Below, one piece after another: positions 2,621-37,230 of a stretch of 39,411 bases of DNA. The translations under genes were made by a program, and so were the position numbers. Position 1 is the stretch's first letter. Every line of letters starts with the position of its first letter. This DNA comes from Gemmataceae bacterium (GTDB lineage: Bacteria > Planctomycetota > Planctomycetia > Gemmatales > Gemmataceae), in the NCBI GenBank assembly GCA_035546275.1, contig DATKHW010000362.1:1-39411 (forward strand), in the 5' to 3' direction. Under the pieces are notes generated by a model, which was not told the DNA's origin, searched no databases, and saw only the letters and a program-made list of their open reading frames with translations.

Positions 2621-4063
2621 CTAAGACGGGTCGTTTTCGTCGGCTTCGACGGTTGGTGTTATGTGCAGCCCCAGGTCGCGAAGCTTCTGGCGCAGCGTCT
2701 GGCGGGCGATCCCAAGCAGGCGGGCCGCCTGGTACTGATTGCCGCGCGTGTGCTCCAAAACGCGGGGCAGCAGGAGGCGGTCCACCTGACGATGCACCTC
2801 CGCGTAAAGGTCGGACGCTTCGGGCGTGAGCCGTTGGTCGATGAACGCTTCCAGGCTCAGGTCCTGCGCCGCGGTGGTGGCCGCGGCGGCGTCGCCGGAT
2901 CGTGCCGGGAGTTCGGGGAGGAAGGCCGGAAGCAGCACCGTGCCGCTCGCCTGGAGCAGGCTCTGTTTCAGCACGCTCTGCAGTTCCCGGATGTTGCCCG
3001 GCCAGGGGTAAGCGGACAGCCGCTGCAGCGCCTCCGCCGCAATCTCCTGCACCTCCCGCCCCAGCTCCCGGCTGAAGCGCCGGAGGTAGTGCCGCACCAG
3101 CAGCGGCAGATCGTCGCCGCGCTCGCGCAGGGCAGGCAAGTGGATGGAGAAGACGCCCAGCCGGTAATACAGGTCCGGCCGGAATTTTCCCTCGGCCGAC
3201 CACGCGGCCAGGTCGCGGTGCGTCGCCGCGATGATCCGCACGTCGGTCTGGACCGTCTCGTTGCCGCCGAGGCGCTCGAAGGATTGTTCTTGAAGAAGCC
3301 GCAGGATCTTCGCCTGGAGCGACAGCGGCATGTCGCCGATTTCGTCCAGGAACAGCGTGCCGCCGTTGCACTGCTCGAACTTGCCGATGCGTCGGCGGTC
3401 GGCGCCGGTGAAGGCGCCCTTTTCATGGCCGAACAGCTCGCTTTCCAGCAGCTGCTCTGGAATGGCGGCGCAGTTCAGGGCCAGGAAAGGCGCCTTGGCG
3501 CGGGGACCGTGCTGGTAGACGGCGCGGGCCACCAGCTCCTTGCCGGTTCCGCTTTCTCCAGTAATCAGCACCGGCACGTTCTGGGCGGCGACCCGGCCGA
3601 CGGCCTTGTAGACGTCCCGCATGGCCGGGCAGCCGCCGACGATGGCGCCGTCCACGTCCGCGTCGGCCGCGTTATCGGCGAGCACGGCCGGCTCGCGCAT
3701 CCGCCGGGCGACCTCCAGGGCCTCGCCGACCACGCGCCGCAGCTGGTGCAGATCGAGCGGTTTGAACAGGTAGTCGTAGGCCCCCTGTTTCATCGCCTCG
3801 ATGGCCGCGTCCGCTCCCTTGGTCATCGTGATGAAGATGACGGGAATCCGCGCGTCGATCCGGCGGACCTGCTGATAGACCTCCAGCCCGGACTGGTCGG
3901 GCAGACGCAGGTCAAGCAGAATGACGTCGGGCGGGTCGGCGCGAACGAGCTCCAGCCCCTCGGCGCCGGAGCCGGCCACAGCGACGCGGTGCTGCGAAAA
4001 GGCCTGGCGCACCTGCTCCGGGATCAGGGCCGCGTCGTCGTCGATGAGCAGCAGGCGAGGCAT
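2621..4063 (-). CDS. sigma54-dependent response regulator (NtrC family), canonical receiver
   Basis: Receiver with all canonical residues ([27 protein letters not shown]). AAA+ module ([31 protein letters not shown]). Fis-type HTH ([23 protein letters not shown]). Confidence 0.95.
3255..3448. repeat. 194-nt tract about 97% identical to 16992-17185 (inside paralogous activator genes)
   Basis: Hand alignment gives 6 mismatches in 194 nt with no gaps. Flanking coding sequence is clearly more diverged. Confidence 0.85.
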
Positions 4064-7200: not shown

Positions 7201-8429
7201 TCGTCGCCGTGAAAATGATGAATGATCAATGCGGAATGATGAATCCAGACGACTCCAGCGATTCGGGTTCTGATATTCATCATTCATCATTCATCGTTCT
7301 GCATTTCTCGGTCCGCGACACCGGCATCGGCATCCCCAAGGACAAGCAGGCGTCGATCTTCCGGGCCTTTGAGCAGGAGGACGCCTCGACCACGCGCAAG
7401 TACGGCGGCACCGGCCTGGGCCTGAGCATCGCCTCGCGGCTGGTCGCCCTGATGGGCGGGACGATCACGGTGGACAGCGAGCCGGGGCGCGGCAGCACCT
7501 TCGCCTTCACAGCCCGTTTCGGACCGCAGCCGCACCCGTCGGCGAGCGGCCGGCATGAGCCGGCCGGTGAGGGTGGGAACGAGCTTACCCCGCCCCTGCA
7601 GAGCAGCCGCTCGCCGCTGCGCATCCTGGCGGCCGAGGACAACGAGTTCAATGCGCAGCTCCTGGAGCAGCTGCTGGGGCGACGCGGACATCAGGTGCGG
7701 CTGGCGAACAACGGCCGGGACGCACTGGCGCTGGCGGAGGAAGGAACCTTCGACCTGCTGCTCCTGGACGTCCACATGCCGGAAATGGACGGTTTTCAAG
7801 TCGCCCGGGCGATCCGTGAGCGGGAGCGCTCGACGGGCGGCCATTTGCCCATCATCGCCCTGACCGCGCGGTCGCGGAACGCGGACCGCGAGCAGTGCCT
7901 GGCGGCCGGCATGGACGATTTCCTGATCAAGCCGATCCGGGCCGCCGACCTGTGGGCGGCGATCGAACGGGCCCTTCTGAGGGATGAGGGAAGAGGGATG
8001 AAGGATGAAGGAAAGCCGGGCGTCCCTCCTGGCTCATCCTTCATCCCTCATCCCTCATCCCTTCTGGACGCGCCGGTGCTGCTCGCCGCCTGCGGGGGCG
8101 ATGCGGCTATTCTGGAGAAGATTTGTCAGGCATTTCGAGCCAGCCTGCCGAATCAGCTGGCGGCCGTACAGGAAGCTCTGGGTCAGCAGGACGCGCCGCG
8201 CTTGCGCGAGGCCGCGCACAAGCTGTCGAGCATGGTCGCGACGTTTTCCACAAGGGCCGGCGGCGTGGCGTCCGACCTCGAAGATCATGCGGCAGGCGGC
8301 CGGCTCGAAGAGGCTCGGCCGCTGGTCGCTCGGCTGGAGGCGATGGCGGAGGAACTGCTGCGGGAGGCAGGCGGCCTGTCGCTCGACGCCCTGCGAGGAC
8401 AGGCGGCGCCTGCCGCATTAACCCGCTGA
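4209..8429 (+). CDS. hybrid sensor histidine kinase (DUF4118-like membrane module, PAS x3, GAF x2, HisKA, HATPase, receiver, Hpt)
   Basis: N-terminal hydrophobic KdpD-like module. Repeated EEALRESEQRFR PAS linkers. H-box FLANVSHEIRTPMNAI, N-box NLVGNAIKFT, G-boxes DTGIGI and GGTGLGLSI. Receiver LLLLDVHMPEMDG..IIALTA..FLIKP. Hpt EAAHKLSSMVATFS. Confidence 0.95.
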   Translation: MRETLRARLVACAVAVLATAACLLIRWPLWPLLEDAVPHMTFLPAVMVAAYFGGFWPGLLATGLSALAANYFFTKQLSPFHVRSVNDVAALVLFLVVGVIVSALCESLHRARRRLVERERRRAEEALRETEERFRQLAENIHEIYWMMDARDGRILYISPGYEEAAGRSRQELYDKPESWVRILHPDDRDKMAAILERYRRGAFPEAEFRLMRPDGLVRWLRSRAFPVHDTGGSPSRFAGLAEDITERKRSEEALRESEQRFRTFVDHAADAFFLHEEGTARILDANRQACESLGYTRDELLGMNAFDFDPDHTPARREDLLRQLAAGKTAAFESRHRRKNGTIFPVEIRAQEFMEGGRRFLVSLARDVTERKQDEALLISQKHILKMIVQGEPLPHVLSALCRGMEDLAHGEMLTSVLLLDADGVHMRHGAAPSLPESYVRAIDGFSIGPSVGSCGTAAYRREPVYVSDIANDPLWAPYAGLALPHGLRACWSSPILSSTGEVLGTFAAYYKQPRSPTPRDLRTVDIFTRTAAVAIEKSQAEQALRESEQRFRGTFENAAVGIFHTDADGRFLRVNEKFCAIVAYPREELFGKTFRDLTHPDDLAVGAEFFAPLMRGELASYALEKRYVRKDGSPVWVELFISLQRDAAGAPAYSIAVLQDISERKRLEAELRRAKEADAERARLAELGRDVGVALSGGVTLNEFLQPCAEALVRYLDAAFARIWWLPPGEEVLELQASAGLYTHLDGDHSRIPIGRLKIGRIARERRPVLTNEVQTDPCVSDPDWAKREGMVAFAGFPLVVNDRLLGVLGMFARRPLSPAVLQALESTAALIALGIERKLRGIELRQAKEAAEAANRAKDEFLANVSHEIRTPMNAIFGMTELVLDSPLTDDQRQCLRTVKSAADSLLGIINDLLDFSKIEAGKMELDHADFSLRSAVGDTLRALAARAQAAGLELACHIEPDAPDALVGDAGRLRQVLLNLVGNAIKFTERGEVVVAVKMMNDQCGMMNPDDSSDSGSDIHHSSFIVLHFSVRDTGIGIPKDKQASIFRAFEQEDASTTRKYGGTGLGLSIASRLVALMGGTITVDSEPGRGSTFAFTARFGPQPHPSASGRHEPAGEGGNELTPPLQSSRSPLRILAAEDNEFNAQLLEQLLGRRGHQVRLANNGRDALALAEEGTFDLLLLDVHMPEMDGFQVARAIRERERSTGGHLPIIALTARSRNADREQCLAAGMDDFLIKPIRAADLWAAIERALLRDEGRGMKDEGKPGVPPGSSFIPHPSSLLDAPVLLAACGGDAAILEKICQAFRASLPNQLAAVQEALGQQDAPRLREAAHKLSSMVATFSTRAGGVASDLEDHAAGGRLEEARPLVARLEAMAEELLREAGGLSLDALRGQAAPAALTR
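7215..7304. repeat. imperfect AT-richer palindrome (ATGATGAATGA...TCATTCATCAT), in frame inside the HATPase domain, family C variant
   Basis: Inner arms GAATGATGAAT (7234-7244) and ATTCATCATTC (7275-7285) pair perfectly; outer arms pair only with shifts. Translates to MMNDQCGMMN...IHHSSFIV between the N-box and G1-box. Confidence 0.7.
7562..7617. repeat. family B element (degenerate left arm, TTACCCCGCCCCTGCA..AGCCGCTCGCC), in frame in the kinase-to-receiver linker
   Basis: Aligns over 56 nt with 14368-14423 (about 10 mismatches, mostly in the left arm). Translated GEGGNELTPPLQSSRSP. Confidence 0.75.
7981..8061. repeat. 28-bp-arm inverted repeat (GGGATGAGGGAAGAGGGATGAAGGATGA / TCATCCTTCATCCCTCATCCCTCATCCC), in frame in the receiver-to-Hpt linker, family C
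   Basis: Arms 7981-8008 and 8034-8061 are complementary with 1 mismatch. Translated RDEGRGMKDEG...SSFIPHPSSL. Confidence 0.9.
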
Positions 8430-11014: not shown

Positions 11015-14000
11015 ATGTGGATCGTTCGACTGGCCTTGCGCCGTACCTACACGTTCGTGGTGGTCGCGCTGCTGATCGGCGTGCTCGGTCTGGTCAGCAT
11101 TAACCGCATGTCCACCGACATCTTCCCCGAAGTCAACATCCCCGTCGTTTCCGTGGTCTGGCAGTATTTTGGTATGCCGGCCGACGAGATCGAAACGCGC
11201 ATCATCCTCGTGAACGAGCGCGTTCTGACCGCCTCCGTCAACGGCATCGAACACATCGAAAGCCAGTCGCTCGACGGCGTCGGCGTCATTCGCGTCTACT
11301 TCTACCCCGGCGCGAAGGTCGCGGACGGCGAGGCCCAGATCACAGCCACCTGCCAGACGCTGCTCAAGGTCCTGCCGCCCGGCATCACGCCGCCCTACAT
11401 CGTCCAGTACAGCGCCACCAGCGTCCCCATCGTCCAGATCGCCGTCTCCAGCGACACGCTCACCGAGGCCCAGCTCTACGACTACGCCTCCAACTTCATC
11501 ATCCAGCGGCTCGGCACGGTCCAGGGGGCGCGTGTGCCCCAGCCTTACGGCGGCAAGGTGCGCCAGGTCATGGTCGATCTTGACCTGCCGGAACTCTATG
11601 CCCGCGGCCTGTCGCCCAATGACATCGCCACAACCGTCCTGAACCAGAACCCGATCATCCCCGCCGGGACCGCCAAGATCGGCGACACCGAGTACGACGT
11701 CAAGCTCAACAACAGCCCCGACCTGGTCAATACGTTCAACTTCATGCCGGTCAAGACGGTCAACGGCGTTCCGATTTATCTCAAGGACGTGGCCCACGTG
11801 CGCGACGGCTTCGCCGTGCAGACCAACATCGTCCGGCGCGACGGCCGGCGGGCGGTGCTGATGACCATTCTCAAGGCCGAGGGCGCTTCCACCATCGACA
11901 TCGTCCGGCGGCTCCGCGAGGCGATGCCCGGCGTTCAGGCCCAGCTGCCGCCGGATATCAAGCTAGAATTTCTCTTCGACCAGTCCGTGTTCGTGGAGAA
12001 CGCGGTCCAGGGGGTGCTCAAGGAGGGGGCGATCGCGGCGGGGCTGACGGCCCTCATGATCCTGCTGTTCCTCGGATCGTGGCGCAGCACGCTCATCGTG
12101 GCCGTGTCGATCCCGCTGTCGATCCTGACGTCGATCATCGTGCTGTGGGCGATGGGGCAGTCGCTCAACATCATGACGCTGGGCGGCATGGCCCTGGCGG
12201 TCGGCATCCTGGTGGACGACGCCACAGTGGAGCTGGAAAACACCCACCGCAACATGGGCGCCCCCCTCACCCTACCCTCTCCCCCATCGGTTGGGGGAGA
12301 GGGTAGGGTGAGGGGGAAAACCATGCGCGAGGCCATCCTGGACAGCGCCGCCCAGGTCGCCACGCCCGCCCTGGTGTCCACGCTTTGCATCTGCATTGTC
12401 TTCCTACCCGTTGTGTTTCTGACCGGCCCGGCCGCGTCGCTGTTCATTCCGCTGGCATTGGCCGTCGTCTTCGCCATGCTGGCGTCGTACTTCCTGTCGC
12501 GCACCCTCGTGCCGACGATGATGCTGTACCTGCTGCCGAAGGAGATGCATCTCTACCAAGGCGGCGACACGAGCCCGCAGCCCAAGCAAGGGAGTCGGTT
12601 CAACGCCCTCGCCTTCCCCTTCGTGTGGCTTTCCAACACGATATGGCGCGTCCACCACGCCTTTGATCGCGCCTTCGAACGGCTGCGGTCGGCCTATACC
12701 GGATTGCTGGGCCGGGCCATCGACCGTCCGTGGCTGACAGCAGGGGCGATGCTCGGCTTCGCCCTGGCGTCGCTGGCGCTGTTCCCGACGATCGGTCAGG
12801 ACTTCTTCCCAGCCGTGGACGCCGGCCAGTTCCGGCTGCACGTCCGCGCCCCGGCCGGCACGCGCATTGAGGAAACCGAGGCGCTCTTCGGTCGGGTGGA
12901 GGACGTCATCCGCCAGGTGGTGCCCGACCAGGAACGGTCCATGATCCTCGACAACATGGGGCTGACGCAGTCGTTCACCATCATGGCCTACCTGGACAAC
13001 GGCACGGTCAGCGACTCCGACGGCGAGATCCTCGTCTCCCTCAAGCCGAACCACAAGCCGACCGAGGACTATGTGGCCCGTTTGCGGCGCGAGCTGCCGA
13101 ACCGCTTCCCCGGCTGCACCTTCTATTTCATGCCGGCCGACATCACGAGCCAGATCCTCGACTTCGGCCTGCCGGCACCGATCGACGTGCAGGTGGTCGG
13201 CGTGGACGCCAAGGACAACCTCGCGCTCGCCAAGAAACTGCAAGCCGGGATCGCCAAGCTCCCCGGCCTGACCGACGTCCACATCCACCAGATCACCGAC
13301 CGGCGCGACCTGCGCGTGGACGTGGACCGCATCGAGGCGTCGCAGCTCGGCCTGACGGAGAACGACGTGGCCAACAACTTGTTGGTCTCGCTCAGCTCCA
13401 CCTACCAGGTTTCGCCCAACTACTGGGTCAACCCGCAGAACCGCGTCAACTACCGCGTGGCCGTGCAGACCCCGGACTGGCACATGAACTCTGTCGCGGC
13501 GCTTGAGAGCACGCCGATCATCGTCAACATCGGCGCAGCCGGCGCCACGAACGCCGGCGGCACGGCGATGGTGAACACGCCGAACCTGCCCACCACGGGG
13601 CAGCCGCAGCTCCTGAGCAACCTGATCAATCTCCGCCGCACCACCTCGGAGCAGGTGGTCAACCATTACAACGTCCAGCGCGTCTACGACATCTACGCCG
13701 GGGTACAGGGGCGCGACCTGGGCGGGGCGTCCGCGGACGTGCAAAAGGTCGTGGACTCGCTGAAGGCGGAGTTGCCGCGCGGCAGCACGATCAACGTCCG
13801 CGGCCAGGTGCAGAGCATGAACAGCTCGTTCCTGGGTCTGGCCGGCGGACTGGTGTTCGCGGTGCTGCTGGTCTATTTCCTGATGGTGGTGAACTTCCAG
13901 TCGTGGCTCGACCCATTCATCATCCTCACCGCCCTGCCCGGGGCGTTGGCCGGCATCGTCTGGATTCTGTTCGCCACGCACACGACCATCAGCGTGCCGG

Positions 14001-16345: not shown

Positions 16346-17944
16346 TCATGCTTCGTCGGCTTCGGCGGATTGCGTGATGTGCAGCCCCAGGTCGCGGAGC
16401 TTCGCGCGCAGGGTTTGCCGGGCGATCCCCAGCAGGCGGGCCGCCTGGAACTGGTTGCCGCGGGTGAACTCCAGGACGCGCGGCAGCAAGACTCGGTCCA
16501 CCTCGCGGCGCGTTTTCGCATACAGGTCTTGAGCGTCCCGCGCCAACCGCCGGCGGATGAATGGTTCCAGGTTGAGGGCAGGCGAGCCGGGCCCGTCAGC
16601 AGCCGGAGCGCTCCGGTCGCCGACGCTCCCGGCTCGCTCCGTTGCGAGTTCGGGCAGGAAGGCCGGCAGCAGGACCGGGCCGCTGGCTTGAAGCAGGGCC
16701 TGCTTGAGCACGCTCTGCAGCTCCCGGATGTTGCCCGGCCAGGAGTAGCCGTGCAGCCGCTCCATCGCCTCCAGGGAAACCGCGCGGACCTCCCGCCCCA
16801 GCTCCCGGCTGAAGCGGCGCAGGAAGTACCGCACGAGTACGGCAAGATCGTCGCCGCGCTCGCGCAACGGCGGCAGGTGGATGGAGAAGACGCCCAACCG
16901 GTAGTACAGATCCGGCCGGAATCGCCCCTCAGCCGACCAGACCGCCAGGTCTCGGTGCGTCGCGGTGATGATCCGCACGTCGGTCCGAATGGTCTCGTTG
17001 CCGCCGAGGCGCTCGAAGGATTGTTCTTGAAGAAGCCGCAGAATCTTCGCCTGGAGCGACAGCGGCATGTCGCCGATTTCGTCCAGGAAGAGCGTGCCGC
17101 CGTGGCACTGCTCGAACTTGCCGATGCGTCGGCGGTCGGCACCGGTGAAGGCGCCCTTCTCGTGGCCGAACAGCTCGCTTTCCAGGAGGTTTTCAGGAAT
17201 GGCGGCGCAGTTGAGCGCCAGGAAGGGCGCTTTCGCCCGCGGGCCGTGGCGGTGGACCGCGCGGGCGATCAGCTCCTTGCCCGTGCCGCTCTCGCCGGTG
17301 ATCAGCACCGGCATGTCCTGGGCGGCGACGCGGCCGACGGCCTTGTATACCTCGGCCATGGCCGGGCAGGACCCGATCATGCCGGCCTCGACGCTCGCGT
17401 CCGCCTCGTTTTCCTCCGCCACGGCCGGCTGACGCATGCGCCGGGCGACGTCCAGCGCCTCGCCGACCACCCGCTGCAGCTGGGGCAAGTCGAGCGGCTG
17501 AAACAGGCAGTCGTAGGCGCCGTGCTTGATGACCTCGATAGCGGCGTCGGCCCGCCTGTGCCGGGCGACGAAAACAACCGGGACGTGGGCGTTGATGCGG
17601 CGGATTTGCTGATAGACCTCCAACCCGCACCCATCCGGCAAGCACTGGTCGAGGACGATCACGTCCGGCGAATCGCTGCGGACCTGCTCCAGTCCGAAGT
17701 CGCTGTCGCCGGCTGTCCGCACCCGGTAGACGGGCGCGGGGAACGCCTGGCGCAACTGCTGCTGCCTTTGCGTCGTTGCGTCGCCGATGAAGAGCAGGCG
17801 GCCGGCGCCGACGTCAGCCTTCTTGTCCTCAATTTCCAGAATGTGCAAATCTGGGGCGTGGCGGTTCTCTCGGTTCGCGGCCGTCTGCGGGACGCAGTAG
17901 GGCGGCCAATGGTGCGTGTTCAACTTCGCCGTCGCCTCCAACAT
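16346..17944 (-). CDS. sigma54-dependent activator (NtrC family) with degenerate receiver and about 48-aa N-terminal extension
   Basis: [23 protein letters not shown] and [26 protein letters not shown]. The receiver keeps the Asp (VIVLDQCLPD) but has LLFIGDA, VFVARH (no Thr/Ser) and CLFQPLD (Lys to Gln). Confidence 0.92.
   Translation of the reverse strand: MLEATAKLNTHHWPPYCVPQTAANRENRHAPDLHILEIEDKKADVGAGRLLFIGDATTQRQQQLRQAFPAPVYRVRTAGDSDFGLEQVRSDSPDVIVLDQCLPDGCGLEVYQQIRRINAHVPVVFVARHRRADAAIEVIKHGAYDCLFQPLDLPQLQRVVGEALDVARRMRQPAVAEENEADASVEAGMIGSCPAMAEVYKAVGRVAAQDMPVLITGESGTGKELIARAVHRHGPRAKAPFLALNCAAIPENLLESELFGHEKGAFTGADRRRIGKFEQCHGGTLFLDEIGDMPLSLQAKILRLLQEQSFERLGGNETIRTDVRIITATHRDLAVWSAEGRFRPDLYYRLGVFSIHLPPLRERGDDLAVLVRYFLRRFSRELGREVRAVSLEAMERLHGYSWPGNIRELQSVLKQALLQASGPVLLPAFLPELATERAGSVGDRSAPAADGPGSPALNLEPFIRRRLARDAQDLYAKTRREVDRVLLPRVLEFTRGNQFQAARLLGIARQTLRAKLRDLGLHITQSAEADEA
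16992..17185. repeat. 194-nt tract about 97% identical to 3255-3448
   Basis: See the partner entry at 3255-3448. Confidence 0.85.
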
Positions 17945-18735: not shown

Positions 18736-21700
18736 ATGTCCGACGATTCACGTGTAGAGGAATTGCTGGAGGAACTGCTCGACTCGGGCGGCAGCCCCGA
18801 AGAGGTCTGCCGCGCGTGCCCCGACCTGTTGCCGCAGGTCCGCGCCGGCTGGAGGCGGTTGCGCGCCCTGCATGCCCAGGTCGTCGCGTTGTTTCCCGAG
18901 ACCACCCTGCTCGACGACGTCGAACCCGATGGGGCGACGCCGCACCCGCCGCCGGCCGCGCTGCCGCGGATCCCCGGCTATGAGGTGCAGGCGGTCCTGG
19001 GCCACGGCGGCATGGGCGTCGTTTACAAGGCTTGGCACGTGCGGCTGCACCGCGCCGTCGCCCTGAAAATGCTTCTCGCCGGCCCCGGCGCCCGGCCGGA
19101 GGAGCTGGAGCGGTTCCTGCGCGAGGCCGAAGCCGTGGCCGGCCTGCGCCACCCCAACATCGTCCAAATCCACGACATCGGCGACCTGGACGGCCGGCCG
19201 TATTTCACCATGGAATTCGTTGAGGGCGGCAGCCTGGCCCGGAAGCTGGCGGGGACTCCGCAGTCGGCTCGCGAGGCCGCCGCCCTGACGGCCGCGCTGG
19301 CCGAGGCCGTCCACGCGGCCCATCAAAGCGGCATCGTCCACCGCGACCTGAAACCGGCCAACGTGCTGCTCACCGCCGACGGCACGCCCAAGATCGCCGA
19401 CTTCGGCCTGGCACGCCGGCTGGAGGGGGGCGCGGGCCTCACCCAGAGCGGCGCCGCCGTGGGGACGCCCAGCTACATGGCCCCCGAGCAGGCTCAGGGC
19501 AAAACGGGGCGGGCCGCCGACATCTACGCCCTCGGGGCGATTCTGTACGAACTGCTGACGGGCCGGCCGCCGTTCCGGGCGGAGACGGCGGTGGAGACGG
19601 TCCTGCAAGTGCTCCACCAGGAGCCGGTCCCGCCGTCGCGCCTGAACGCAAAGACGCCGCGCGACCTGGAGACGATTTGCCTGAAATGCCTCCGCAAAGA
19701 TCCGCAACGGCGTTACGCCGCCGCGGCGGCGCTGGCGGACGACCTGCGGCGGTTCCAGCGCGGCGAACCCGTCCGGGCGCGTCCCGCGAGCCTGCCGTCG
19801 CGCCTGGCCAAGTGGGCGCGCCGTCGCCCGACCCATGCGGCCATGCTCGCCGTGGGCCTCCTTTTCATCGTCGCGCTGGTCGCCGGGGGCGTGTGGCTGG
19901 CGCTGCACCAGGCGGAACGGCGCCGCTTGATCGAAGCGGACTTGAAAGATGTGGCGACTCTGCAAGAGCAGGCCCGCTGGACGGCGGCGCGGGCCGCGCT
20001 GGAACGGGCCGCGGCCCGGCTCGATGGAAGCGTCTCCGACGACCTGCGGGGACGGATCGACCAATCGCGGCGCGACCTCGACCTGGCGACCCAGCTGGAC
20101 GCCGTCCAACTGCGGCGCGAGACCCGCAGCGACCTGCCTTTCTACGACGCCCAGGCGGCCCGGGAGTACGCAGAGGCGTTCCAGAAGGCGGGGCTGGGCA
20201 AGCTCCTCGATCCGCCGGAGCGTGTGGCGGCGATGGTGAACGCATCGGCCGTGCGCAAGGCGCTCGTGGAAGCGCTGGACGACTGGTCGGTCCGCGCGAC
20301 CGACAAGGAGGAGCGGGCCTGGCTGTTGGAGGCTCTGAAGCGGGCGGACCCCGACCCGGAGGGATGGCGGGCGCGCGTCCCGGCGGCGTGGGAGGACGCC
20401 GGGACGCTGGCCGAATTGGCCCGGACCGCGCCAGTCGAGCGGCTGCCGGAGTCCATGATGCTAGCGATTGGGCGACGCTTGAGGGCTTTCCGGCGGGACG
20501 CGGCCCCGTTCTTGAGGCGGGTACAGCAGGCGCATCCCGGCGATTTCTGGCCCAATTTGATCCTCGGCGATGCGCTGCTCCAGGGGAACGCCGAGCAAGC
20601 GGCCGGCTACTACCGAGCGGCGTTAGCAAGCCGGCCGACGGCGGCGGTCGGTTACTGCGCCGTCGGCGACGCCCTGAGATACCACGACGACCTGGATGCG
20701 GCGATCGATTACTATCACAAGGCCCTCCAATTCGACCCTAATTTCGCCAGGGCTCACAACAATCTCGGCCTTTCCCTGCAAGCCCAGGACCAACTGGACG
20801 AGGCGATGGGTTGCTTCCAGAAGGCCGCCCAGCTCGACCCCGACTACGCCTGGGCCCATCTCGATCTCGGCAACCTCCTGCGAGCCAAGGGCCGGCTGGA
20901 CGAGGCCTACGATCAATTCCAGGAGGTCCTCCGCCTGGACCCGACGAACCGGGAAGTCCGAGACCCCCTGAGAAGCATCCTGGTTCGGCGGGGACGAGTG
21001 GAAGAAGTGCAGGCCGAATGGCGCAAGGCGATCGACGCCGACCCGTCTCAGCATGATACGTGGTTCGGCTACGCGGAATTCTGCCTGTTTCTTGGACAGC
21101 CAGAGGAGTACCGCCGCGTCCGCCGGGCCTTGCTCGATCGCTTCGGCGCGACCACCGACCCGTACACGGCCGAGCCGGTCGGCCGGGCCTGCCTGCTGCT
21201 GCCGGCTTCGGAGGAAGAGTTGCAGCAGGCGGCGGCCCTCGCCGACCGCGCCGTGGCCGCCAAGGGATCGACGCCGGCCTGGATTTACCGCTACTTTCTG
21301 TTCGCCAAGGGCCTCGCCGAGTATCGCCAGGGCAGGTACGACAGCGCGATCGCGCTGATGAAAGGGGAAGCGTCCCTGGTCATGGGGCCCTCCCCCCGCG
21401 TAATTGCGGCCATGGCCCAGTACCGAAACGGTCAGGAGAAGCAGGCGCGCAAGACGCTTGCGCTGGCCGTCGTCGGCTTCGATTGGAGCGCCGCCGATGC
21501 GGACAGGCGCGACATCTGGATCGCCCACATCCTCCGCCGCGAGGCCGAGGCCCTGATCCTGCCGGACCTGCCGGCGTTCCTGCGGGGAGAATATCAGCCG
21601 CGGGACGACGACGAAGGCATGGCGCTGGTAGGGGCCTGTCAATTCCAAGGCCTCGACGGCTCCGCGGCCCGCCTGTACGCCGATGCCTTCACGGCCGATC

Positions 21701-22134
21701 CGAACCTGGCCGAGGACCTGGCCGCGCAATGCCTTCGCCGCACGCAACGAAGCGGCCAAAAGCCGGGCGGCGTGCTCGAGAATCTCAACTCGGAATGCCG
21801 TTACCCCGCCGTCCGCTGCGCGGCGCTGGCCGGTTGCGGATTCGGCAAGGATGCGGCCATGCTCAGCGAAGCGGAGCGGACGCGCTGGCGCCGGCAGGCG
21901 CGCAACTGGCTGCGGGCCGACCTGGCCCTGTGGGACAAGATGCTGTCCAGCGATGCGCCGGCGGCCCGCGACCTGGCGGAGAAAATGCTGAGGCGCTGGC
22001 AGATCGATCCCGACCTGGCCGGGCTGCGCGAGCCGGGCGCTATGGACGCGTTGCCGGCGGACGAGCGAGCCGAGTGGGTCGCGCTGTGGAGAGAGGTCGG
22101 CGCCGCGCTCGATCGCGCCCACACGACCCGGTGA
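18736..22134 (+). CDS. membrane Ser/Thr protein kinase with N-terminal CxxC helical module and TPR-rich extracytoplasmic region
   Basis: Starts 18 nt after the sigma gene stop. Hanks motifs GGMGVVYKA, VALK, HRDLKPANVLL, DFGLAR, GTPSYMAPEQ. One TM helix AAMLAVGLLFIVALVAGGVWLAL. TPR-like repeats (AIDYYHKALQFDPNFARAHNNLG etc.). Confidence 0.93.
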   Translation: MSDDSRVEELLEELLDSGGSPEEVCRACPDLLPQVRAGWRRLRALHAQVVALFPETTLLDDVEPDGATPHPPPAALPRIPGYEVQAVLGHGGMGVVYKAWHVRLHRAVALKMLLAGPGARPEELERFLREAEAVAGLRHPNIVQIHDIGDLDGRPYFTMEFVEGGSLARKLAGTPQSAREAAALTAALAEAVHAAHQSGIVHRDLKPANVLLTADGTPKIADFGLARRLEGGAGLTQSGAAVGTPSYMAPEQAQGKTGRAADIYALGAILYELLTGRPPFRAETAVETVLQVLHQEPVPPSRLNAKTPRDLETICLKCLRKDPQRRYAAAAALADDLRRFQRGEPVRARPASLPSRLAKWARRRPTHAAMLAVGLLFIVALVAGGVWLALHQAERRRLIEADLKDVATLQEQARWTAARAALERAAARLDGSVSDDLRGRIDQSRRDLDLATQLDAVQLRRETRSDLPFYDAQAAREYAEAFQKAGLGKLLDPPERVAAMVNASAVRKALVEALDDWSVRATDKEERAWLLEALKRADPDPEGWRARVPAAWEDAGTLAELARTAPVERLPESMMLAIGRRLRAFRRDAAPFLRRVQQAHPGDFWPNLILGDALLQGNAEQAAGYYRAALASRPTAAVGYCAVGDALRYHDDLDAAIDYYHKALQFDPNFARAHNNLGLSLQAQDQLDEAMGCFQKAAQLDPDYAWAHLDLGNLLRAKGRLDEAYDQFQEVLRLDPTNREVRDPLRSILVRRGRVEEVQAEWRKAIDADPSQHDTWFGYAEFCLFLGQPEEYRRVRRALLDRFGATTDPYTAEPVGRACLLLPASEEELQQAAALADRAVAAKGSTPAWIYRYFLFAKGLAEYRQGRYDSAIALMKGEASLVMGPSPRVIAAMAQYRNGQEKQARKTLALAVVGFDWSAADADRRDIWIAHILRREAEALILPDLPAFLRGEYQPRDDDEGMALVGACQFQGLDGSAARLYADAFTADPNLAEDLAAQCLRRTQRSGQKPGGVLENLNSECRYPAVRCAALAGCGFGKDAAMLSEAERTRWRRQARNWLRADLALWDKMLSSDAPAARDLAEKMLRRWQIDPDLAGLREPGAMDALPADERAEWVALWREVGAALDRAHTTR

Positions 22135-24090: not shown

Positions 24091-24106
24091 CGCAGCGGTC
24101 GTGCCA
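24091..24106 (-). promoter_or_regulatory. candidate sigma54 promoter (TGGCAC-N5-CTGC)
   Basis: Minus strand reads TTGGCACGACCGCTGCG with exact GG-N10-GC spacing. Intergenic, about 85-95 nt upstream of the kinase start at 23996. Confidence 0.5.
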
Positions 24107-24317
24107 AAGCGCGGCGCGTCGTCGCGCTTCCCTTCCCTGATGTATCACGCAGCGACGCAAAGGCCGCTAATCGGTCGGCGCAGGCTCCGGACCCGGCATC
24201 CGGAGGTGGTAGGTTTTTGGCCGACCCGAAAGCAATTCTACCCCTATCAGGCCTGCCCGCCTGCTCGGAGCAACCCGGCGGGCGCCAAAAAGCCCAAAAA
24301 ACACAGTCTGCTAGTCG

Positions 24318-24333
24318 CGGCACAGCTGTTGCT
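24318..24333 (+). promoter_or_regulatory. candidate sigma54 promoter (CGGCAC-N5-TTGCT)
   Basis: CGGCACAGCTGTTGCTTTTTT with exact spacing, 86 nt upstream of ATG 24419. Two A-tracts (24287-24291, 24296-24301) lie just upstream. Confidence 0.55.
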
Positions 24334-30255: not shown

Positions 30256-30486
30256 GGCCTCCATCGTGATCTGGACGCTCTCGACATATTAGCGGTTCCA
30301 GATCGGCTCCAGGATGGCGTTGGCGAAGCGGAACTGCAACAAATTCTGCACCGGATCTTTGCCGAGGCGACGGTCGATGCGGAAGATCGACGTCTCGTCG
30401 AAGTCGCCCAGCAAGATGCGGTTGAGGGCTTGCGCCGAGGCGAGGTCTCTACCGAAGGGCTTTTCGATGATGACGCGGCCGCCGTT
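30256..30486 (-). pseudogene. zwf: glucose-6-phosphate dehydrogenase relic (central fragment only, in-frame TAA, catalytic His lost)
   Basis: [66 protein letters not shown] matches the Zwf core (EKPFG, RIDHYLGKE, LRFAN, WNR..VQIT). N- and C-terminal parts are absent. RIDHY has become RIDRR. Confidence 0.75.
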
Positions 30487-30545
30487 GCGCGGGCACACGC
30501 AGCGGGACGAGATTGACAAGCCGACGCACAGCGTCGGCCTGCCGT

Positions 30546-31049
30546 TCAAGCCTTGTGCGCCGGATCGGTCTCCGCTTTGGCGGCCGCCGGCGCCGGGCGA
30601 GGCGCGGCCGCGTGGGCCGGCGCCTTGACGAGCAGGACCGGGCAGTGGGCCTGCCGGACCACGTCCTCGGTCACGCTGCCGGTCAGCAGGTGGCTCAACC
30701 GCGTGTGCCCGTGCGTCCCCATCACGATCAGGTCGCAGCCGGACTTCTCCAGCATCTCCAGAATGTGCGCGACCTTCGGCCGTTCGGCCACGATCGCCTT
30801 GTGCTCTACCTTCACGGCCGGGTCGACCGCTGGGAGGCTCTTGAAGCGGCCCCACACGTCGGTCAGGTTCCCGCCGCTCGACGCGGTCAGGAGGGCGCCG
30901 CCCTCCGCCGCCACGGCCGGCGCGTGGGACACATGGAAGATGACGATTTCGGCCCCGGTCGCTTTCGCGAGCACCTGCGCGACCCGGAACGCCTCGTCGG
31001 CGGGGGGGGAGAAGTCGGTGGGGACCAGGATTTTGCGGATCGCGTTCAC
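30546..31049 (-). CDS. universal stress protein (UspA family)
   Basis: GAAGGAGG 5 nt before GTG 31049. [52 protein letters not shown]. Confidence 0.88.
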
Positions 31050-31080
31050 ATCAGCCTCCTTCGGGAATGGATAGGACGAC

Positions 31081-31506
31081 TCACGCTGCCGGAGCGGCCT
31101 GCCCTTCGATTTCACGAACAGAGGACAGCTTCCAGGCGACGTACCGGGTCACGAGATCGACCGTGAAGAGGTCGGGGATGGCGCCCAGCCGCCGGTCCTT
31201 TTCCAGGGCGGCAAGGTCGGCGTAGGGCATGCGCCGGCGCAGCTCGGTCATGCCCTTGTCCGTCACCCGGCCGTCGCTGACGAACTCCGGGTCGCCTTGG
31301 AATACCGATTCGGGGAACAATTCGCCGCGCGGGATCGTGAGGCCGAACTCGCGCTCCAGGCGGAACACAATGTCCAGGAAGTCGATGGACTCGGCGCCCA
31401 GGTCGTTCTGCAGGCTGGCTGACGGCGCGACCTCGTCCTCGTCCACGTTGAGCGACTCCGTCAACACTTGGGTCACTCTTGCAAACGTCGTTTCATATAC
31501 GGGCAT
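31081..31506 (-). CDS. acyl-carrier-protein-like protein with an internal insertion of about 45 aa
   Basis: GGAGG 6 nt before ATG 31506. Phosphopantetheine-site-like LQNDLGAESIDFLDIVFRLEREFG. ACP helix 4-like LFTVDLVTRYVAWKL is displaced by an insertion. 141 aa. Confidence 0.65.
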   Translation of the reverse strand: MPVYETTFARVTQVLTESLNVDEDEVAPSASLQNDLGAESIDFLDIVFRLEREFGLTIPRGELFPESVFQGDPEFVSDGRVTDKGMTELRRRMPYADLAALEKDRRLGAIPDLFTVDLVTRYVAWKLSSVREIEGQAAPAA

Positions 31507-31578
31507 GGCTCGCCTCCAGGTGAAACTCGCGCCTATCCGGCTGTCGCGTCGGCGGACCAATGGCGCCGTAGTGCGGAA

Positions 31579-31595
31579 AGCAACCGCCATGCCAA
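31579..31595 (-). promoter_or_regulatory. candidate sigma54 promoter (TGGCAT-N5-TTGCT)
   Basis: Minus strand reads TTGGCATGGCGGTTGCTTT with exact spacing. About 75-90 nt upstream of ATG 31506. Confidence 0.55.
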
Positions 31596-31838
31596 GGACG
31601 TCCGGTCGCCGTACGCGGTGGGAATTGAGCGCCGGCGCGGACCCGGCCATGCGTGGAGTGGCAGCCTTCTTTCCCGGTAGGTGCAACATCTACCAGCGCG
31701 GCGGGGCGAAAGATCGACAGCCGAGATGACCATTCTCATGGCACTTGCACCAGCTGCCCCCCACTCCGCCGTTCCAAACGCCTTCACCTCGCAGATTTTA
31801 TCTCCTTCCCGTGGTGCAGACGAACACATTAGCAGACC

Positions 31839-31854
31839 CGGCATGACCGTTGCT
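31839..31854 (+). promoter_or_regulatory. candidate sigma54 promoter (CGGCAT-N5-TTGCT)
   Basis: CGGCATGACCGTTGCTC with exact spacing. About 80 nt upstream of ATG 31933. Confidence 0.5.
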
Positions 31855-31932
31855 CCGCATGCACGCCGCAATGGTGGGACTTGCGGGTGAAGAACTCGCA
31901 TGTCGGCCCGGATCCACTTGAAGGAGAAAGCC

Positions 31933-32436
31933 ATGAAACTGCACTTCTGGGCGGCCGTGGTTGGCGTCCTGGCGATGGGCGGCGCCGCCGCGCGGGGCGA
32001 CGATGGACCGGTCACGGACGCCGATTACCTGGCGGGGGCCATCACCCACGCCGCAGCCGAGGGCCGGGCCGGCAAGCTGGCCCTGAAGCGGGCGAAGTCG
32101 GAAGAGCTTCGGCAGTTCGCCCGCAAGGCCCTCGAAGAGCAGGCGACATTCGACCCGGACCTGCAAGCCCTCGCCGTGGATCACAAGCTGGCGGTGCTGT
32201 CCAGCCAGGCGGACGGCTGGCAGCTGTCGGAATCCGTGCTGGGCGACCTGTCCGGCGAACAATTCGACCGCGAGGCTTTGAAGCTCTTCATCCGCGACCT
32301 GGAACAGTGGATCGACCTGTCGCAGCACAGCGCGAGCCGCGACGACGCGGCAGAGAGCCAGCTGGCGGCCAAGATGTTGCCGACCCTGCGGGAGCGGCTC
32401 CGGGAAGCCAAGCGGCTGCGGAAAGCTCTGCCATAG
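31933..32436 (+). CDS. secreted DUF4142-like protein
   Basis: AAGGAG before ATG 31933. Signal peptide MKLHFWAAVVGVLAMGGAAA. Two helical half-repeats with ..LRQFARKALEE.. and ..GEQFDREALKLFIRDLEQ.. resemble DUF4142. The family call is from memory. Confidence 0.65.
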   Translation: MKLHFWAAVVGVLAMGGAAARGDDGPVTDADYLAGAITHAAAEGRAGKLALKRAKSEELRQFARKALEEQATFDPDLQALAVDHKLAVLSSQADGWQLSESVLGDLSGEQFDREALKLFIRDLEQWIDLSQHSASRDDAAESQLAAKMLPTLRERLREAKRLRKALP

Positions 32437-32470: not shown

Positions 32471-32971
32471 TTATGCCTCCTGGGGAACCTGCTCGATCAT
32501 CCACCAGAAGAAGTCCGTGATTGGTAGTTCGATCCCGAACCGTTTGAGCTTGGACGCGACCTGACCGCGGTGGTAGCTGGAGTGATTGACAATGTGGCGC
32601 AGTATCGCCCACCGCGGCAGGGTGAAACTGCGGCCGATCGCGCGCACCGTCAGCAAGGTGTTGAGCCGGTCCGGCGTGAGCGTGAGACGCAGCTCCTCGA
32701 AGCGGCGGTAGTTACGTTCCAGCAACTGGCCCACGTCGTCCACCGTGGCCAGATCGGCTTCGGTCGGGATGTGGTCGTCCGGATCGCTGACTAGCGTGCG
32801 CAGGTTCAACGCGGTCGCCTGGGCGATGTGGGAGATGGTCGAGCGCACCGACGACCAGCCAGGAACAGGCTCCGCGACATACTGTTCGGGAGTCAGCTTG
32901 CGGCAGGCATCGAGGACCTTCGCACTGGCCCAGCGATCGTACGCGAACAACGCCACGACATCGTCTTGCAT
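32471..32971 (-). CDS. DinB-family (DUF664-like) four-helix metalloprotein
   Basis: GGAGAG before ATG 32971. YDRWASAKVLDACRKLTPEQY..ISHIAQA..HIVNHSSYHRGQV His-triad pattern. Confidence 0.88.
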   Translation of the reverse strand: MQDDVVALFAYDRWASAKVLDACRKLTPEQYVAEPVPGWSSVRSTISHIAQATALNLRTLVSDPDDHIPTEADLATVDDVGQLLERNYRRFEELRLTLTPDRLNTLLTVRAIGRSFTLPRWAILRHIVNHSSYHRGQVASKLKRFGIELPITDFFWWMIEQVPQEA

Positions 32972-33052
32972 GAGGATCTCTCCTGGGCCGGGACAGGGGC
33001 ATTTTAGGTATTGCGGGGCAGACAACCCAGGTGTCAATTCTGGATGAGTTCC

Positions 33053-33068
33053 TGCAACTCGTCCGCCG
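33053..33068 (-). promoter_or_regulatory. weak candidate sigma54 promoter (CGGCGG-N5-TTGCA)
   Basis: Perfect -12 TTGCA and correct spacing, but two -24 mismatches. About 70-80 nt upstream of the DinB ATG. Confidence 0.25.
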
Positions 33069-33191
33069 TTAAATCGCGGTTGCAGATCACCAACTCGTCC
33101 ATGAGTTCCTCGAAGTGCGGATTGCCCGGGCCGGGCCGCTTGGCAATCCAGCAGCAGCAGCGCTCCAACAGCGTCATATGGGAGAGCTTGC

Positions 33192-33761
33192 ATGGTTCGG
33201 AATGGCTCCGATCACGGTCAGGATCATGCCGGACTGGATATTCCGATTCTTCAAGCCGTGGCCCGAGCTCGGCGCTTGGACTGGTTCCAGGTCCTGTATG
33301 CCCGTATTGTCCTGGCCGTCGCTGGTGGGGAACCCGTTGGCTGGGTGGCCTCCCGTATGGAATGTGATCCGGCCACCGTCTGGCGGCTGTGTCGCCGCTA
33401 CGAGCAAGGCGGCTGGCGACACCTCCTGCTGGACGCACCCCGCCTGGGGCGTCCCCTGGAGATTTCACCCCTCCAGCGGGCTCGGATCGTTGAACTGGCT
33501 TGCCTGGCGCCAATCGCCGAGGGGTTGCACATCCCGCATTGGGCCAGCCTGGATTTGGCCAGGCAGGCGGTCGCCGACGGCATCGTGGACGCCATCAACC
33601 CACGCACCGTCCGGCGAATCATGCACGACGTGGACTTGCAGCCGCATCGTACGCGGCGCCGGAGGACGACCCGCCAGGACGCCCGCCCAAGTGCGCCGAA
33701 ACGGAAATTAGAAACGCTCTCCTCTCACGGTGAGAATTACTTGATTGACCAGGTTGGGTGA
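33192..33761 (+). mobile_element. IS630-family transposase relic (N-terminal HTH part only, no DDE domain)
   Basis: ARIVLAVAGGEPVGWVASRM..VWRLCRRYEQGG..DAPRLGRPLEISPLQRARIVELAC..HWASLDLA..INPRTVRRIMHDVDLQPHRTR matches IS630 OrfA-type N-termini. The sequence degenerates after PHRTR and no catalytic domain follows. Confidence 0.7.
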
Positions 33762-33861: not shown

Positions 33862-36800
33862 CTAGCGCTTCTCTGCCGGCTGAATCAGCGCTTCAGCCTC
33901 GCGGCGCAGGACATGCGCTTCCAGCCAGTTGTGCAGGTGCAGCCCGACCTCCGCTTCGGCACTGGCAGGCATCCTGTCGCCGTACTGATCGAGCCACGCC
34001 TGGGCCTTGCCCAGCCAGCGCCGCGCCTCCTCGGACCTCCCGAGGCGCTGGTTGGTCAGGGCCAACCACAGCCAGTTCAGCACCGCCCGGCCGGGCGTGG
34101 CGTCGGCCATCAGACTCTGCTCGAAGAGGGGCGCCGCCTCCTGGAACCGGCCGGCCCGGGACGCCAAGGCGCCTTGCTCGGTCAGTGACCAGAATTCTCG
34201 GGAGCCCTGGAGCTCCTTCTCCGCCAGGCGGTTCGGCAGCGACATGTCCGCGACGGCATGGGGGGCCAGCGTCCAGGCGCGGGCCACGTGGTACGGCCGC
34301 GGCCCCTTGTCGTTGCCACACCGGTCCACCAGGTGGGCGCACGCCTTGCATGTAGCCCGGGCGATCGCCGGACAACAGAAGGAGGGCGGCGTACTCGAAC
34401 CAGAAGCGGCCGTCGTCCGTCGGGCCGCGCGTCAAGCCCTGTGCGTAACAGTCGGCGGCCTGGGCCCAGTCCCGATGGGCGGCGTACGCCCGGCCCTGCT
34501 CCACCGGGTCGGCGGCGACCACCGGCGCCACAGCCGCCCAGAAGTGCTGCCACGGCTCGCGCTCCGCGTCGGGCAACTTCGCCAGCGCCGCCGGGTCCCG
34601 CACGCTGGCCAGGGCAGGATCCATTTGCCAGGCCGCGACCGACTGTGCCGACAATTTGCCGTCCCGCAGCAGATTAGTCGTGAGTTCCAGGTCGGCCCGC
34701 AGCCAGGCCAGCGCTTGGCGGCGCTTGTCGGCTTGCTCCGGCTCACCGAGCCGCTCCTTCTGGGAGCCTTGGCCGGCCGCTGCCCGGACGGCATCGCTGG
34801 CGGCGGCATACAAGCTGGAGCTGAGGCCCTTCTGGGCCACAGTGGAGTCGGGGTCGATGCGGAGGGCTTGCTGGTAGTGGTCGATGGCCTCCTTCAGCCG
34901 GCCCTTTATGCTCAGGGCACGGCCGAGGTTGGTGTGGCACGCGGCGGCGATCCTAGGATCGTCGAGCCGAAGAGCCTGCTCGAAGTGGTCGATGGCCTCG
35001 TCCAGCAGACCCTTATCGGCCAGAGCAGTGCCGAGGTTGGCGTGGGCCCAAGCGAAATGGGGGTCAATGCCGACGGCCTGCTCGAAGTGGTCGATGGCTT
35101 CGTCCAGCCGGCCCTGAATTTGCAGGACGACGCCCAGGTTCTGGTGGGCCACGTCGGACCTGGGGTCGAGCTGGAGGGCTTCCTCAAAGTACTCACCGGC
35201 TTCCTTTCTCCGGCCCAGATTGAACAGCGCGGTGCCGAGCCCGTTATAGGCCGCACTGGACTCAGGACGCACCGCCAGGGCCGCACGGAGGTGACCGACG
35301 GCCTCCTCGACCGCCCGCCCTGATCCAGCGCCAAGCCCAGCTTGAGGTTGAGCCGGAAGTCCTGTGGCGCCCGTTTTTGCGCGGCGGTTAGAAGTGGCGC
35401 CGCATCCATGCCCTTCAAGCGCAAAACGCGCCCGAGAGCGGTAGCCATTTCCGGGGATAGCGCGGCAACCTTCAGGTCCTCGGGCAGATTGGCCAGCTGT
35501 TTACCGTCGTTCCACAAGTCTGGCTGGCGCAGGCGGGCTCGCGCTGGATTCGGGTCGGCCTTTCGGGCCACTGCCAAAAGCCACTCCCGCCGTGGACCGT
35601 CCCGAGTGATGGCGGCCCAGTCATCGAGGGCGGCGATGACCTCCGCACTCACTGCCGACTTTTGCACGCTCGCCGCCACGGCCTCGACGTCGGCGCCCTC
35701 TCGACCCAACCCCGCTTCGGCAAACGCCGACGCGTACAGCAGCTCAACGCGCGCCAGGTCGAATTGCTGCCTTCTGGCCGTTGCCGCCTTTACCCGGGCG
35801 GCGTCCAGGCGTTCTGCCAGGTCCAGGTCGGCCCGGCCCTGGTCCACCTGTCGGCGCAGGTCATCCGGCCCCGCCGCGTCCAGCCGCTGCCGGGCCTGCT
35901 CCAGCAACTCCCGCGCCTCGCGGAAGTGGAACCCGTTGCGGAGACTTGCCGCCTGAGCTACGGCGGTTCTAATTTCGTTGCGTAAGTCGGCGTCGAGCCG
36001 AGCCACCTCCACCCGCCGCTCAGCCCGCTGCTGAAGCAGCCACACCCCGGCGCCGCTCGCCAGCCCGACCAGAGCCAGCATTGTCATCGCCAATGCCGCG
36101 GCCATCGGCTTGCGCCGACACCAGCGCCAGAGCTGCGATCCTAGGCTCAAAGGCCTGGCCTGGATCGGTCGTCCCTCCCCGAAGCGCCTCAGGTCGTCGG
36201 CCAGCGCCGCGGCGCTGGCGTAGCGGCGCTCCGGCTCCTTACTCAGGCACTTCAGGCAAATGGTTTCCAGGTCGCACGGCAGCCGAGGGTTCAGCCGCGA
36301 CGGCGGCACGGGGTCCTGGAAGAGCACCTGCTGCACCGTTTCCGCCGCCGTCTCCCCCCGGAACGGCGGCCGGCCCGTCAGCATCTCGTAGAGGATCGCC
36401 CCCAGCGCGTACACGTCCACGGCCGGCCGGATGGCCTGAGTCTGACCCCGGGCCTGCTCGGGGGCCATGTAGCTCGGCGTCCCCATCGGGACGCCGCTCT
36501 GGGTCAGGCCCGCGCCGCCTTCCAGGAGCCGGGCCAGCCCGAAGTCGCTGATCTTGGGCGTGCCGTCGGCGGTCAGCAGGACGTTGCCCGGCTTCAGGTC
36601 GCGGTGGATGATCCCGCACGTATGGGCCGCGTGGACGGCCCCGGCCAGAACAGCCAGCAGCGCGGCGGCTTCGCGGGTCGGCTGAGGCGCGCCCGCGAGC
36701 TTCTGGGCCAGGCTGCCCCCCTCGATCAGTTCCATGGTGAGGTACGGCCGCCCGTCCGCCTCGCCGACGTCATAAATCTGCACCACGTTCGGGTGCCGCA

Positions 36801-37230
36801 GCCCGGCCGCCGCCTCCGCCTCGCGCGGGAATCGCTCCCGCTCGCGCGGCTCGGCGAAATCGCCGGCGAGCGCCATCTTCAGCGCGACCAGCCGCTTGAG
36901 CCGCAGGTGTCTAGCCCGAAAAACGATCCCCATGCCGCCGCGGCCCAGCACCGCTTCGACTTCGTAGCCCGGGATTCGCGGAAGGGCCGCATCCCTCGGC
37001 GGGTGCGGAGTCAGTGCATCCCTCGGCGGGAAATGAGCGTCCAGCATCGTGCTTGAAGCGTCTGGCGGCGGGAAGAGGGCGTCGAGGTCGGCGCGGACGC
37101 GGCACATCCGCCGCCACTGTTTGCGGACCATGGGCAGCAACTCGGGGCACGACGCGCACACCGCCTCCGGCGTGGCGTACCCGTCGAGGAGTTCGTCGAG
37201 CAGTTCCTGGACTCGTGGATCGTCGGCCAT
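33862..37230 (-). pseudogene. paralogue of the 18736-22134 Ser/Thr kinase, split over three frames by two frameshifts
   Basis: Frame 1 (37230 to about 35318) carries the CxxC N-terminus, intact Hanks motifs and the TM helix. Frame 2 (about 35317 to 34346) carries TPR repeats. Frame 3 (about 34344 to 33862) carries the C-terminus ending HVLRREAEALI as in the paralogue. The junctions restore collinearity with the paralogue. Confidence 0.8.

Follow-up and report, generated by a model that had tools for sequence, protein, structure and literature searches.

The window analysed here is a 39,411-nucleotide stretch of DNA with a G+C content of 67.7%, whose nearest relatives are Gemmataceae and other Planctomycetota. 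Among its genes are ECF sigma factors, Ser/Thr kinases with TPR repeats and two paralogous enhancer-binding proteins (bEBPs) of the response-regulator type, and rpoN is absent from the window. At 31.5 kb, a minus-strand operon consisting of an ACP-like gene followed by a universal stress protein (USP) gene is separated by an intergenic spacer from a plus-strand DUF4142 gene, beyond which lies a DinB gene (Table 1). The ACP-like protein is of a 130-150 aa type with an invariant C-terminal extension (...PRGELFPES...MPYADL...DR...LFTV.LV.RY.AWKL), and the true start of the USP gene is probably internal to its ORF. Downstream of the USP gene, part of a minus-strand ORF at 30289-30855 (positions 30289-30500) encodes a glucose-6-phosphate dehydrogenase-like terminal fragment (EKPFGRD...RIDRRLGKD...) that looks like a gene remnant, and fragmented genes of this kind also occur near the corresponding module in one relative, L166. 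Elsewhere on the minus strand (33893-37230), a Ser/Thr kinase ORF at 34912-37230 overlaps a TPR-rich ORF at 33893-35272 in a different frame. The two ORFs together resemble the single 1132-aa kinase encoded at 18736-22134, pointing to a frameshift within one gene or an error in sequencing.

Table 1. Genes, candidate sigma-54 promoters and enhancer elements discussed in the text, with their positions in the window.
Feature	Position	Strand	Description
bEBP-1 gene (candidate activator)	2621..4063	-	canonical response regulator bEBP; paralogue of bEBP-2
bEBP-2 gene (candidate activator)	16346..17944	-	REC-like domain, AAA+ domain with GAFTGA, HTH_8; syntenic counterpart of the bEBP adjoining the module in relatives
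Candidate sigma-54 promoter	24091-24106	-	TGGCACGACCGCTGCG; among the top four promoter PWM sites
Second enhancer-like element	24207..24243		TGGTAG-N25-CTACC, same design as 31659-31695; PWM score 12.9-13.0
Candidate sigma-54 promoter	24318-24333	+	before the catalase-like operon; among the top four promoter PWM sites
Catalase-like/cytochrome b561/Dps operon	from ~24.4 kb
USP gene	30546..31115	-	Pfam PF00582; second gene of the ACP-like operon
ACP-like gene	31081..31506	-	PP-binding domain PF00550 plus conserved C-terminal extension; first gene of the operon
Candidate sigma-54 promoter P_acp	31579..31594	-	TGGCATGGCGGTTGCT; GG at -24, GC at -12; precedes the ACP-like/USP operon
Enhancer (UAS) dyad 2	31659..31675		TGGCAGCCTTCTTTCCC; centre ~-99 from the P_acp TSS; PWM score 12.5, among the top three in the window
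Enhancer (UAS) dyad 1	31679..31695		plus strand AGGTGCAACATCTACCA, minus strand TGGTAGATGTTGCACCT; contains hexamer 1; PWM score 23.2, best in the window
Candidate sigma-54 promoter P_duf4142	31839..31854	+	CGGCATGACCGTTGCT; precedes the DUF4142 gene
DUF4142 gene	31933..32436	+	Pfam PF13628, with orthologues; predicted to be served by the plus-strand promoter; RBS and ATG conserved
DinB gene	32471-33193	-

A preliminary description of this locus had proposed that the spacer is bounded by divergent -24/-12 promoters, and both are present as described, apart from a 2-nt offset in the start coordinate of the minus-strand element. The minus strand reads TTGGCATGGCGGTTGCTTT at 31577-31595 and the plus strand reads CGGCATGACCGTTGCTC at 31839-31855, each with GG and GC exactly 10 nt apart within TGGCAC-N5-TTGCW. 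With transcription start sites (TSS) predicted at ~31568 for P_acp and ~31865 for P_duf4142, the leaders would be ~62 nt long for the ACP-like gene (ATG at 31506) and ~68 nt long for the DUF4142 gene (ATG at 31933). The 39.4-kb window has three copies of GGCAYN5TTGCW versus 0.37 expected, a count reached by none of 100 shuffles. Each copy precedes a gene and is correctly oriented to it, the third, at 24319 (+), standing before the catalase-like operon. When a promoter PWM was built from other genomes only, its top four sites in the window were 31839(+), 31579(-), 24318(+) and 24091(-). Neither a sigma-70-like promoter nor an RNA family was found in the spacer or the leaders. This evidence supports the assignment of the spacer at 31.58-31.85 kb as a putative divergent sigma-54 promoter pair.

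The -24/-12 elements are kept in all close relatives that were fetched, amounting to 8-9 ACP-type and six DUF4142-type loci. Promoter-bearing relatives of the ACP type are L081, L082, L092 and L163-L167, those of the DUF4142 type are L081 and L168-L172, and L081 carries both. Among these close relatives (65-87% identity), the element TGGCAYGAYGGTTGCT stands 60-74 nt before the ACP ATG in L081, L092 and L163-L167. The P_acp-like element of L082 lies 216 nt from the ATG because of a palindromic insertion of ~65 nt (CCCTGGTAGCCCGACGCGTATGCGAGGG...CCCTCGCTTACGCGTCGGGCTACCAGGG, ~7825-7891) in the leader between promoter and ATG; this insertion looks like a REP- or MITE-like element. The plus-strand promoter is kept as YGGCATGAYNGTTGCT in L081 and L168-L172, and the entire module is found in these same loci in the order P(-), 63-65 nt, two dyads, 87-143 nt, P(+) and DUF4142, even where the left-hand gene is no longer an ACP gene. 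A six-way alignment shows conserved islands at the two promoters, a 47-bp enhancer block, the leader start and the RBS. The USP gene is found downstream of the ACP gene in L081, L082, L163, L164, L167 and L168, directly after it in L081 and L168.

The ACP-like family itself is far broader than this group, with more than 8000 homologue matches and a widespread distribution across Planctomycetota (among L001-L162). Upstream of distant ACP homologues, sampled as 80 GTDB and 80 metagenome loci, there was no excess of -24/-12 elements over controls. A sigma-54 promoter as a general trait of the family was therefore rejected, the distant planctomycetal homologues being without one, and the sigma-54 arrangement is clade-specific. 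In distant Planctomycetota, the ACP-like gene usually comes after a FabG-like SDR gene. Only the window's clade would have put its ACP-like copy and the USP gene under sigma-54 control.

Promoter-anchored alignment of the relatives revealed one conserved upstream block only, a two-dyad element that corresponds to 31659-31695 in the window and reads TGGCAGCCTTCTTTCCC ggt AGGTGCAACATCTACCA. The two 17-bp imperfect dyads are mutually inverted, are of the type TGGYAR-N5-YTRCCA, and have centres 20-21 bp apart in every genome, a distance of two helical turns. Bases T1, G2, G3, A5, C15 and C16 of the dyads show little or no variation. Among the outer half-site bases, variability is confined to position 4, which is Y (C/T), and position 14, where R predominates (11 of 16 sites have A and three have G), a pattern that fits a TGGYA...TRCCA dyad. 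The distance from this two-dyad element to the -24 box is 64 nt for P_acp and 143 nt for P_duf4142, and the centre of dyad 1 is at ~-119 from P_acp and ~-178 from P_duf4142. A UAS is expected to have conserved dyad-symmetric sites ~80-200 bp upstream of its promoter; the two dyads of the window, centred at -99 and -119 from P_acp, fit this, and they are kept at all 13 close-relative loci, with L084 having the element too.

Independent scoring singled out the same sites. With a PWM for which the window's own sites were left out of training, the best three matches in the window were 31679-95, 24207-23 and 31659-75, and the composite pattern TGGYAR-N25/26-YTRCC occurred only at 31659-31695 and ~24207-24243, versus 0.36 expected per window. 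Outside the training set, an enhancer-promoter pair was found in L166, where an element at 13544-13580 is followed by a sigma-54 motif at 13744 and then by a TPP-enzyme gene, and another enhancer-like pair was found in L084 at 959-995. A position of -99/-119, dyad symmetry and two-turn spacing are typical of bEBP enhancers.

Several other sequence features were observed in or near these elements. Dyad 2 reads TGGCAGCCTTCTTGCC in several relatives (L163 615-631, L168 7771-7786, L170 7746-7761 and L171 7528-7543), which is the sigma-54 consensus with two mismatches. A third sigma-54 promoter at this position was considered and rejected, as the GC is missing in the window, L082, L092, L165 and L166, and the sigma-54-like look of dyad 2 is probably a by-product of a TGGCA...TGCCA dyad. 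A second, partly conserved dyad is located at ~31726-31745, between the enhancer and P_duf4142. It reads ATGACCATTCTCATGGCAC in the window and GTGACAATATCCTGTCAC in L170, can be followed in the aligned columns of L169 and L170, is absent in L081 and L168, and could be a putative site for another regulator. Nearer to P_duf4142 there is an A/T-rich tract (31793-31804); more speculatively, A/T-rich tracts between enhancers and promoters may help bending. L167 carries a near-perfect single dyad, TGGTAGACGATCTGCCA, at 4289-4305, ~550 nt upstream of a bEBP gene at 4858, which could be an autoregulatory or other target site.

A comparable arrangement is present at 24.1-24.3 kb, where an element of the same design lies between two candidate sigma-54 promoters, 74 nt upstream of the one at 24318 (+) and 100 nt from the one at 24091-24106 (-). 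The inner half-sites of this element are weak. Orthologues of the catalase-like operon were present in no fetched locus, so the case for the 24.2-kb enhancer is a statistical one. A tandem A-tract repeat (CCAAAAAGC/CCAAAAAAC) at 24285-24302, between the element and the 24318 promoter, could be an intrinsic bend. The occurrence of a like element between these promoters supports a local regulon, which had been suggested earlier from the architecture of the two promoter pairs; that suggestion gains further weight from the finding that the four promoters are the top four PWM sites in the window. A regulon joining the 24-kb and 31-kb modules would probably be a stress or energy-limitation response.

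The window encodes two candidate activators. Both bEBPs have the domain architecture of the NtrC family, with a receiver domain, a sigma-54 interaction AAA+ domain containing GAFTGA and a Fis-type HTH_8 domain (Pfam), and both fall short of the NtrC equivalog model TIGR01818 (NCBIfam cut-off 558.6 bits), bEBP-2 scoring 468.1 bits and bEBP-1 489 bits. They are 73% identical, share the GAFTGA motif and have near-identical HTH recognition helices, so either or both could use the enhancer. bEBP-1 is divergent from a PAS/GAF hybrid histidine kinase gene at 4209-8429, and bEBP-2 adjoins genes for an ECF sigma factor and a TPR Ser/Thr kinase.

In the window the bEBP genes are 13.6 kb and 27.5 kb from the module. 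Four relatives (L081, L082, L167 and the P0004 contig) have a bEBP gene of the same subfamily directly adjoining the module. In three of them, L081, L082 and the P0004 contig, its neighbours are the same ECF sigma and TPR kinase genes that flank bEBP-2 in the window. In a fifth relative, L169, the module has a bEBP fragment at ~4 kb, with genes for DUF4118 and PAS domains after it, similar to the way bEBP-1 and its kinase are paired. From gene linkage only, bEBP-1 and/or bEBP-2 would be the likeliest activators to bind 31659-31695.

The receivers of the two paralogues differ. Compared to bEBP-1, that of bEBP-2 is degenerate: DD is replaced by GD, the conserved Thr by Ala and the conserved Lys by Gln (LFQPLD versus LFKPLD). 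bEBP-2 also has a 48-aa N-terminal extension, which is conserved in L081, and its L082 orthologue is without the phospho-acceptor Asp. The degenerate receiver, along with the constant ECF sigma and TPR Ser/Thr kinase neighbours, hints at non-canonical control of bEBP-2.

The architecture is a textbook one, and the window module would be a lineage-specific example of a known layout. At glnAp2 of enteric bacteria, two dyad sites for NtrC, an activator of REC-AAA+-HTH_8 architecture, are located ~100-140 bp upstream of the sigma-54 promoter. The window resembles this system in its two upstream dyads and in the domain architecture of its activators, and one of its half-sites happens to read GGTGCA. 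In the NtrC consensus TGCACC(A/T)4TGGTGCA (PMC4987338 Table 1), however, the ACC/GGT ends point inward, whereas in the window dyads (TGGYAR-N5-YTRCCA) they point outward. Unlike NtrC, the window bEBPs score below the equivalog cut-off, and no nitrogen-assimilation genes lie nearby. Judged by its design, 31659-31695 is not an enteric NtrC operator.

The FhlA-dependent hyc and hyp operons are also divergent and sigma-54-dependent, with upstream activating sequences between them. Unlike the bEBPs considered here, FhlA is no response regulator, and both its enhancer (CATTTCGTACGAAATG) and its target genes (PMC4987338 Table 1) are unrelated to those of the window. In E. coli and Salmonella, zraP and zraSR have two divergent sigma-54 promoters and a shared intergenic region from which one response-regulator bEBP, ZraR, acts (PMC4987338). 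The likeness to the window lies in a divergent sigma-54 pair served from one intergenic region, and the ZraR central domain (1ojl) is one of the nearest relatives with a solved structure for the window's bEBP. The window differs in that its regulator genes belong to neither divergent unit, its operator sequence is unrelated, its candidate activators are two paralogues, and its targets are ACP-like/USP and DUF4142.

Together, these comparisons make it probable, in our judgement, that the spacer at 31.58-31.85 kb is a bidirectional enhancer-dependent control region in which a single UAS serves two divergent sigma-54 promoters, with bEBP-1/bEBP-2 as its likely activators. Here we infer the sigma-54 dependence, the binding protein and the inducing signal from motifs, conservation, spacing and gene linkage. 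Following established sigma-54 biology, sigma-54 holoenzyme would form closed complexes at P_acp and P_duf4142. Activated dimers of an NtrC-family bEBP would bind both dyads from the same side of the DNA and oligomerise, and by looping the oligomer would reach either closed complex and open it at the expense of ATP. Since the bEBP would loop to either promoter, the ACP-like/USP operon and the DUF4142 gene would be co-induced, and the 24-kb pair would add the catalase-like/cytochrome b561/Dps operon and a Ser/Thr kinase gene to the co-induced set.

A different arrangement of activator sites had been put forward in the preliminary description, in which three evenly spaced GGTGCA/TGCACC hexamers, said to be well above chance, act as phased NtrC-type half-sites to which the activator(s) of both promoters are recruited. 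The three hexamers do exist, starting at 31680, 31746 and 31813 with gaps of 66 and 67 bp, and hexamer 1 (31680-31685) lies inside the conserved dyad 1. For this hexamer alone, the probability of at least three occurrences in 243 bp is ~8e-4, and equal spacing given three sites has a probability of ~0.018, a post hoc figure. Across 2080 hexamer classes, however, ~1.7 triples are expected, and a class with three or more occurrences is found in 68% of the spacer shuffles and in 94% of 243-bp segments drawn at random from the window. The 39.4-kb window as a whole shows no enrichment, with 29 hexamers versus 23.4 expected (22 of 100 shuffles reach 29). Each of the six orthologous spacers holds exactly one GGTGCA, inside dyad 1, and the half-site variants seen at hexamer 1 in relatives are GGTGCA, GGTGGA, GGTAGA and GGTAAA. 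Conservation of hexamers 2 and 3 was found in none of these six spacers: hexamer 2 (31746-31751) is in a stretch without a counterpart in L081 (~53 gap columns) and in variable columns in the other relatives, and hexamer 3 (31813-31818) is altered in every relative, reading GTGCGG, GTGCGC or ACGTGG in some and deleted in others. The enhancer PWM gave no match of at least 3 bits at hexamers 2 and 3, nor elsewhere in the spacer outside 31659-31695. A search for TGCACC-N5-GGTGCA with up to three mismatches found no match in 31596-31838, and 28 in the window versus 26.4 expected. The 66-67 bp between the hexamers amount to 6.3 helical turns, so that they do not lie on a common face of the DNA, and a dimeric HTH protein would not be expected to stay on isolated half-sites. 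Both bEBPs, moreover, fall outside the NtrC equivalog. Because the hexamer is not enriched, thrice-repeated hexamers are frequent in shuffles and, decisively, hexamers 2 and 3 are not conserved, the triplet is not meaningful and is mostly coincidence, and we give the half-site model almost no credence. Hexamer 1 is instead one variant half-site of a real dyad of non-NtrC design.

If the sigma-54 promoters are real, the two-dyad element might still be bound by something else, such as another bEBP encoded elsewhere, a repressor or a nucleoid protein. The linkage of the window's bEBPs to the module is positional, they lie 13.6 kb and 27.5 kb from it, the genome may encode many further bEBPs, and the GTGAC-N-GTCAC-like dyad at ~31726-31745 shows that other factors may act here. 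Against these points, bEBP orthologues adjoin the module in four relatives with a fragment close by in a fifth, and the position, symmetry and spacing of the dyads are those of bEBP enhancers, which makes another binder unlikely. Alternatively, the -24/-12-like motifs might not be promoters: they could match by chance, or mark the two inverted ends of a small mobile element or repeat. They do form a 15-nt, 87% inverted repeat around the block, the module is found beside different left-hand genes, and transposase genes are nearby in L168 and L171. This origin is nonetheless very hard to reconcile with the match to the sigma-54 consensus at every informative position, with the fixed distance and orientation to the start codons, and with the presence of the motif as a single copy before other genes (24318; L166 13744). 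The two bEBPs with GAFTGA further imply that the organism uses sigma-54, and we regard mobile-element ends or chance as highly improbable.

To our knowledge, transcriptional regulation in Planctomycetota is almost unmapped. Literature searches on sigma-54/RpoN for Planctomycetes and Gemmata yielded no work on promoters or enhancers, and no description of a sigma-54 enhancer for the phylum. The bidirectional control region proposed here corrects the phased NtrC half-site reading, which was attractive but wrong, and supplies a usable search motif, TGGYAR-N25/26-YTRCC beside YGGCAYGAYNGTTGCT, by which a Gemmataceae sigma-54 stress regulon becomes traceable genome-wide. Putative members of this regulon so far are the USP, ACP-like, DUF4142, catalase-like/Dps and TPP-enzyme genes. 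A more tentative possibility, which we do not favour at present, is that the two paralogous bEBPs, one paired with a histidine kinase and the other a pseudo-receiver protein beside an ECF sigma factor and a Ser/Thr kinase, converge on the same enhancers. In that case, a His-Asp phosphorelay and a eukaryote-like Ser/Thr kinase input would be combined in one planctomycete sigma-54 stress regulon.
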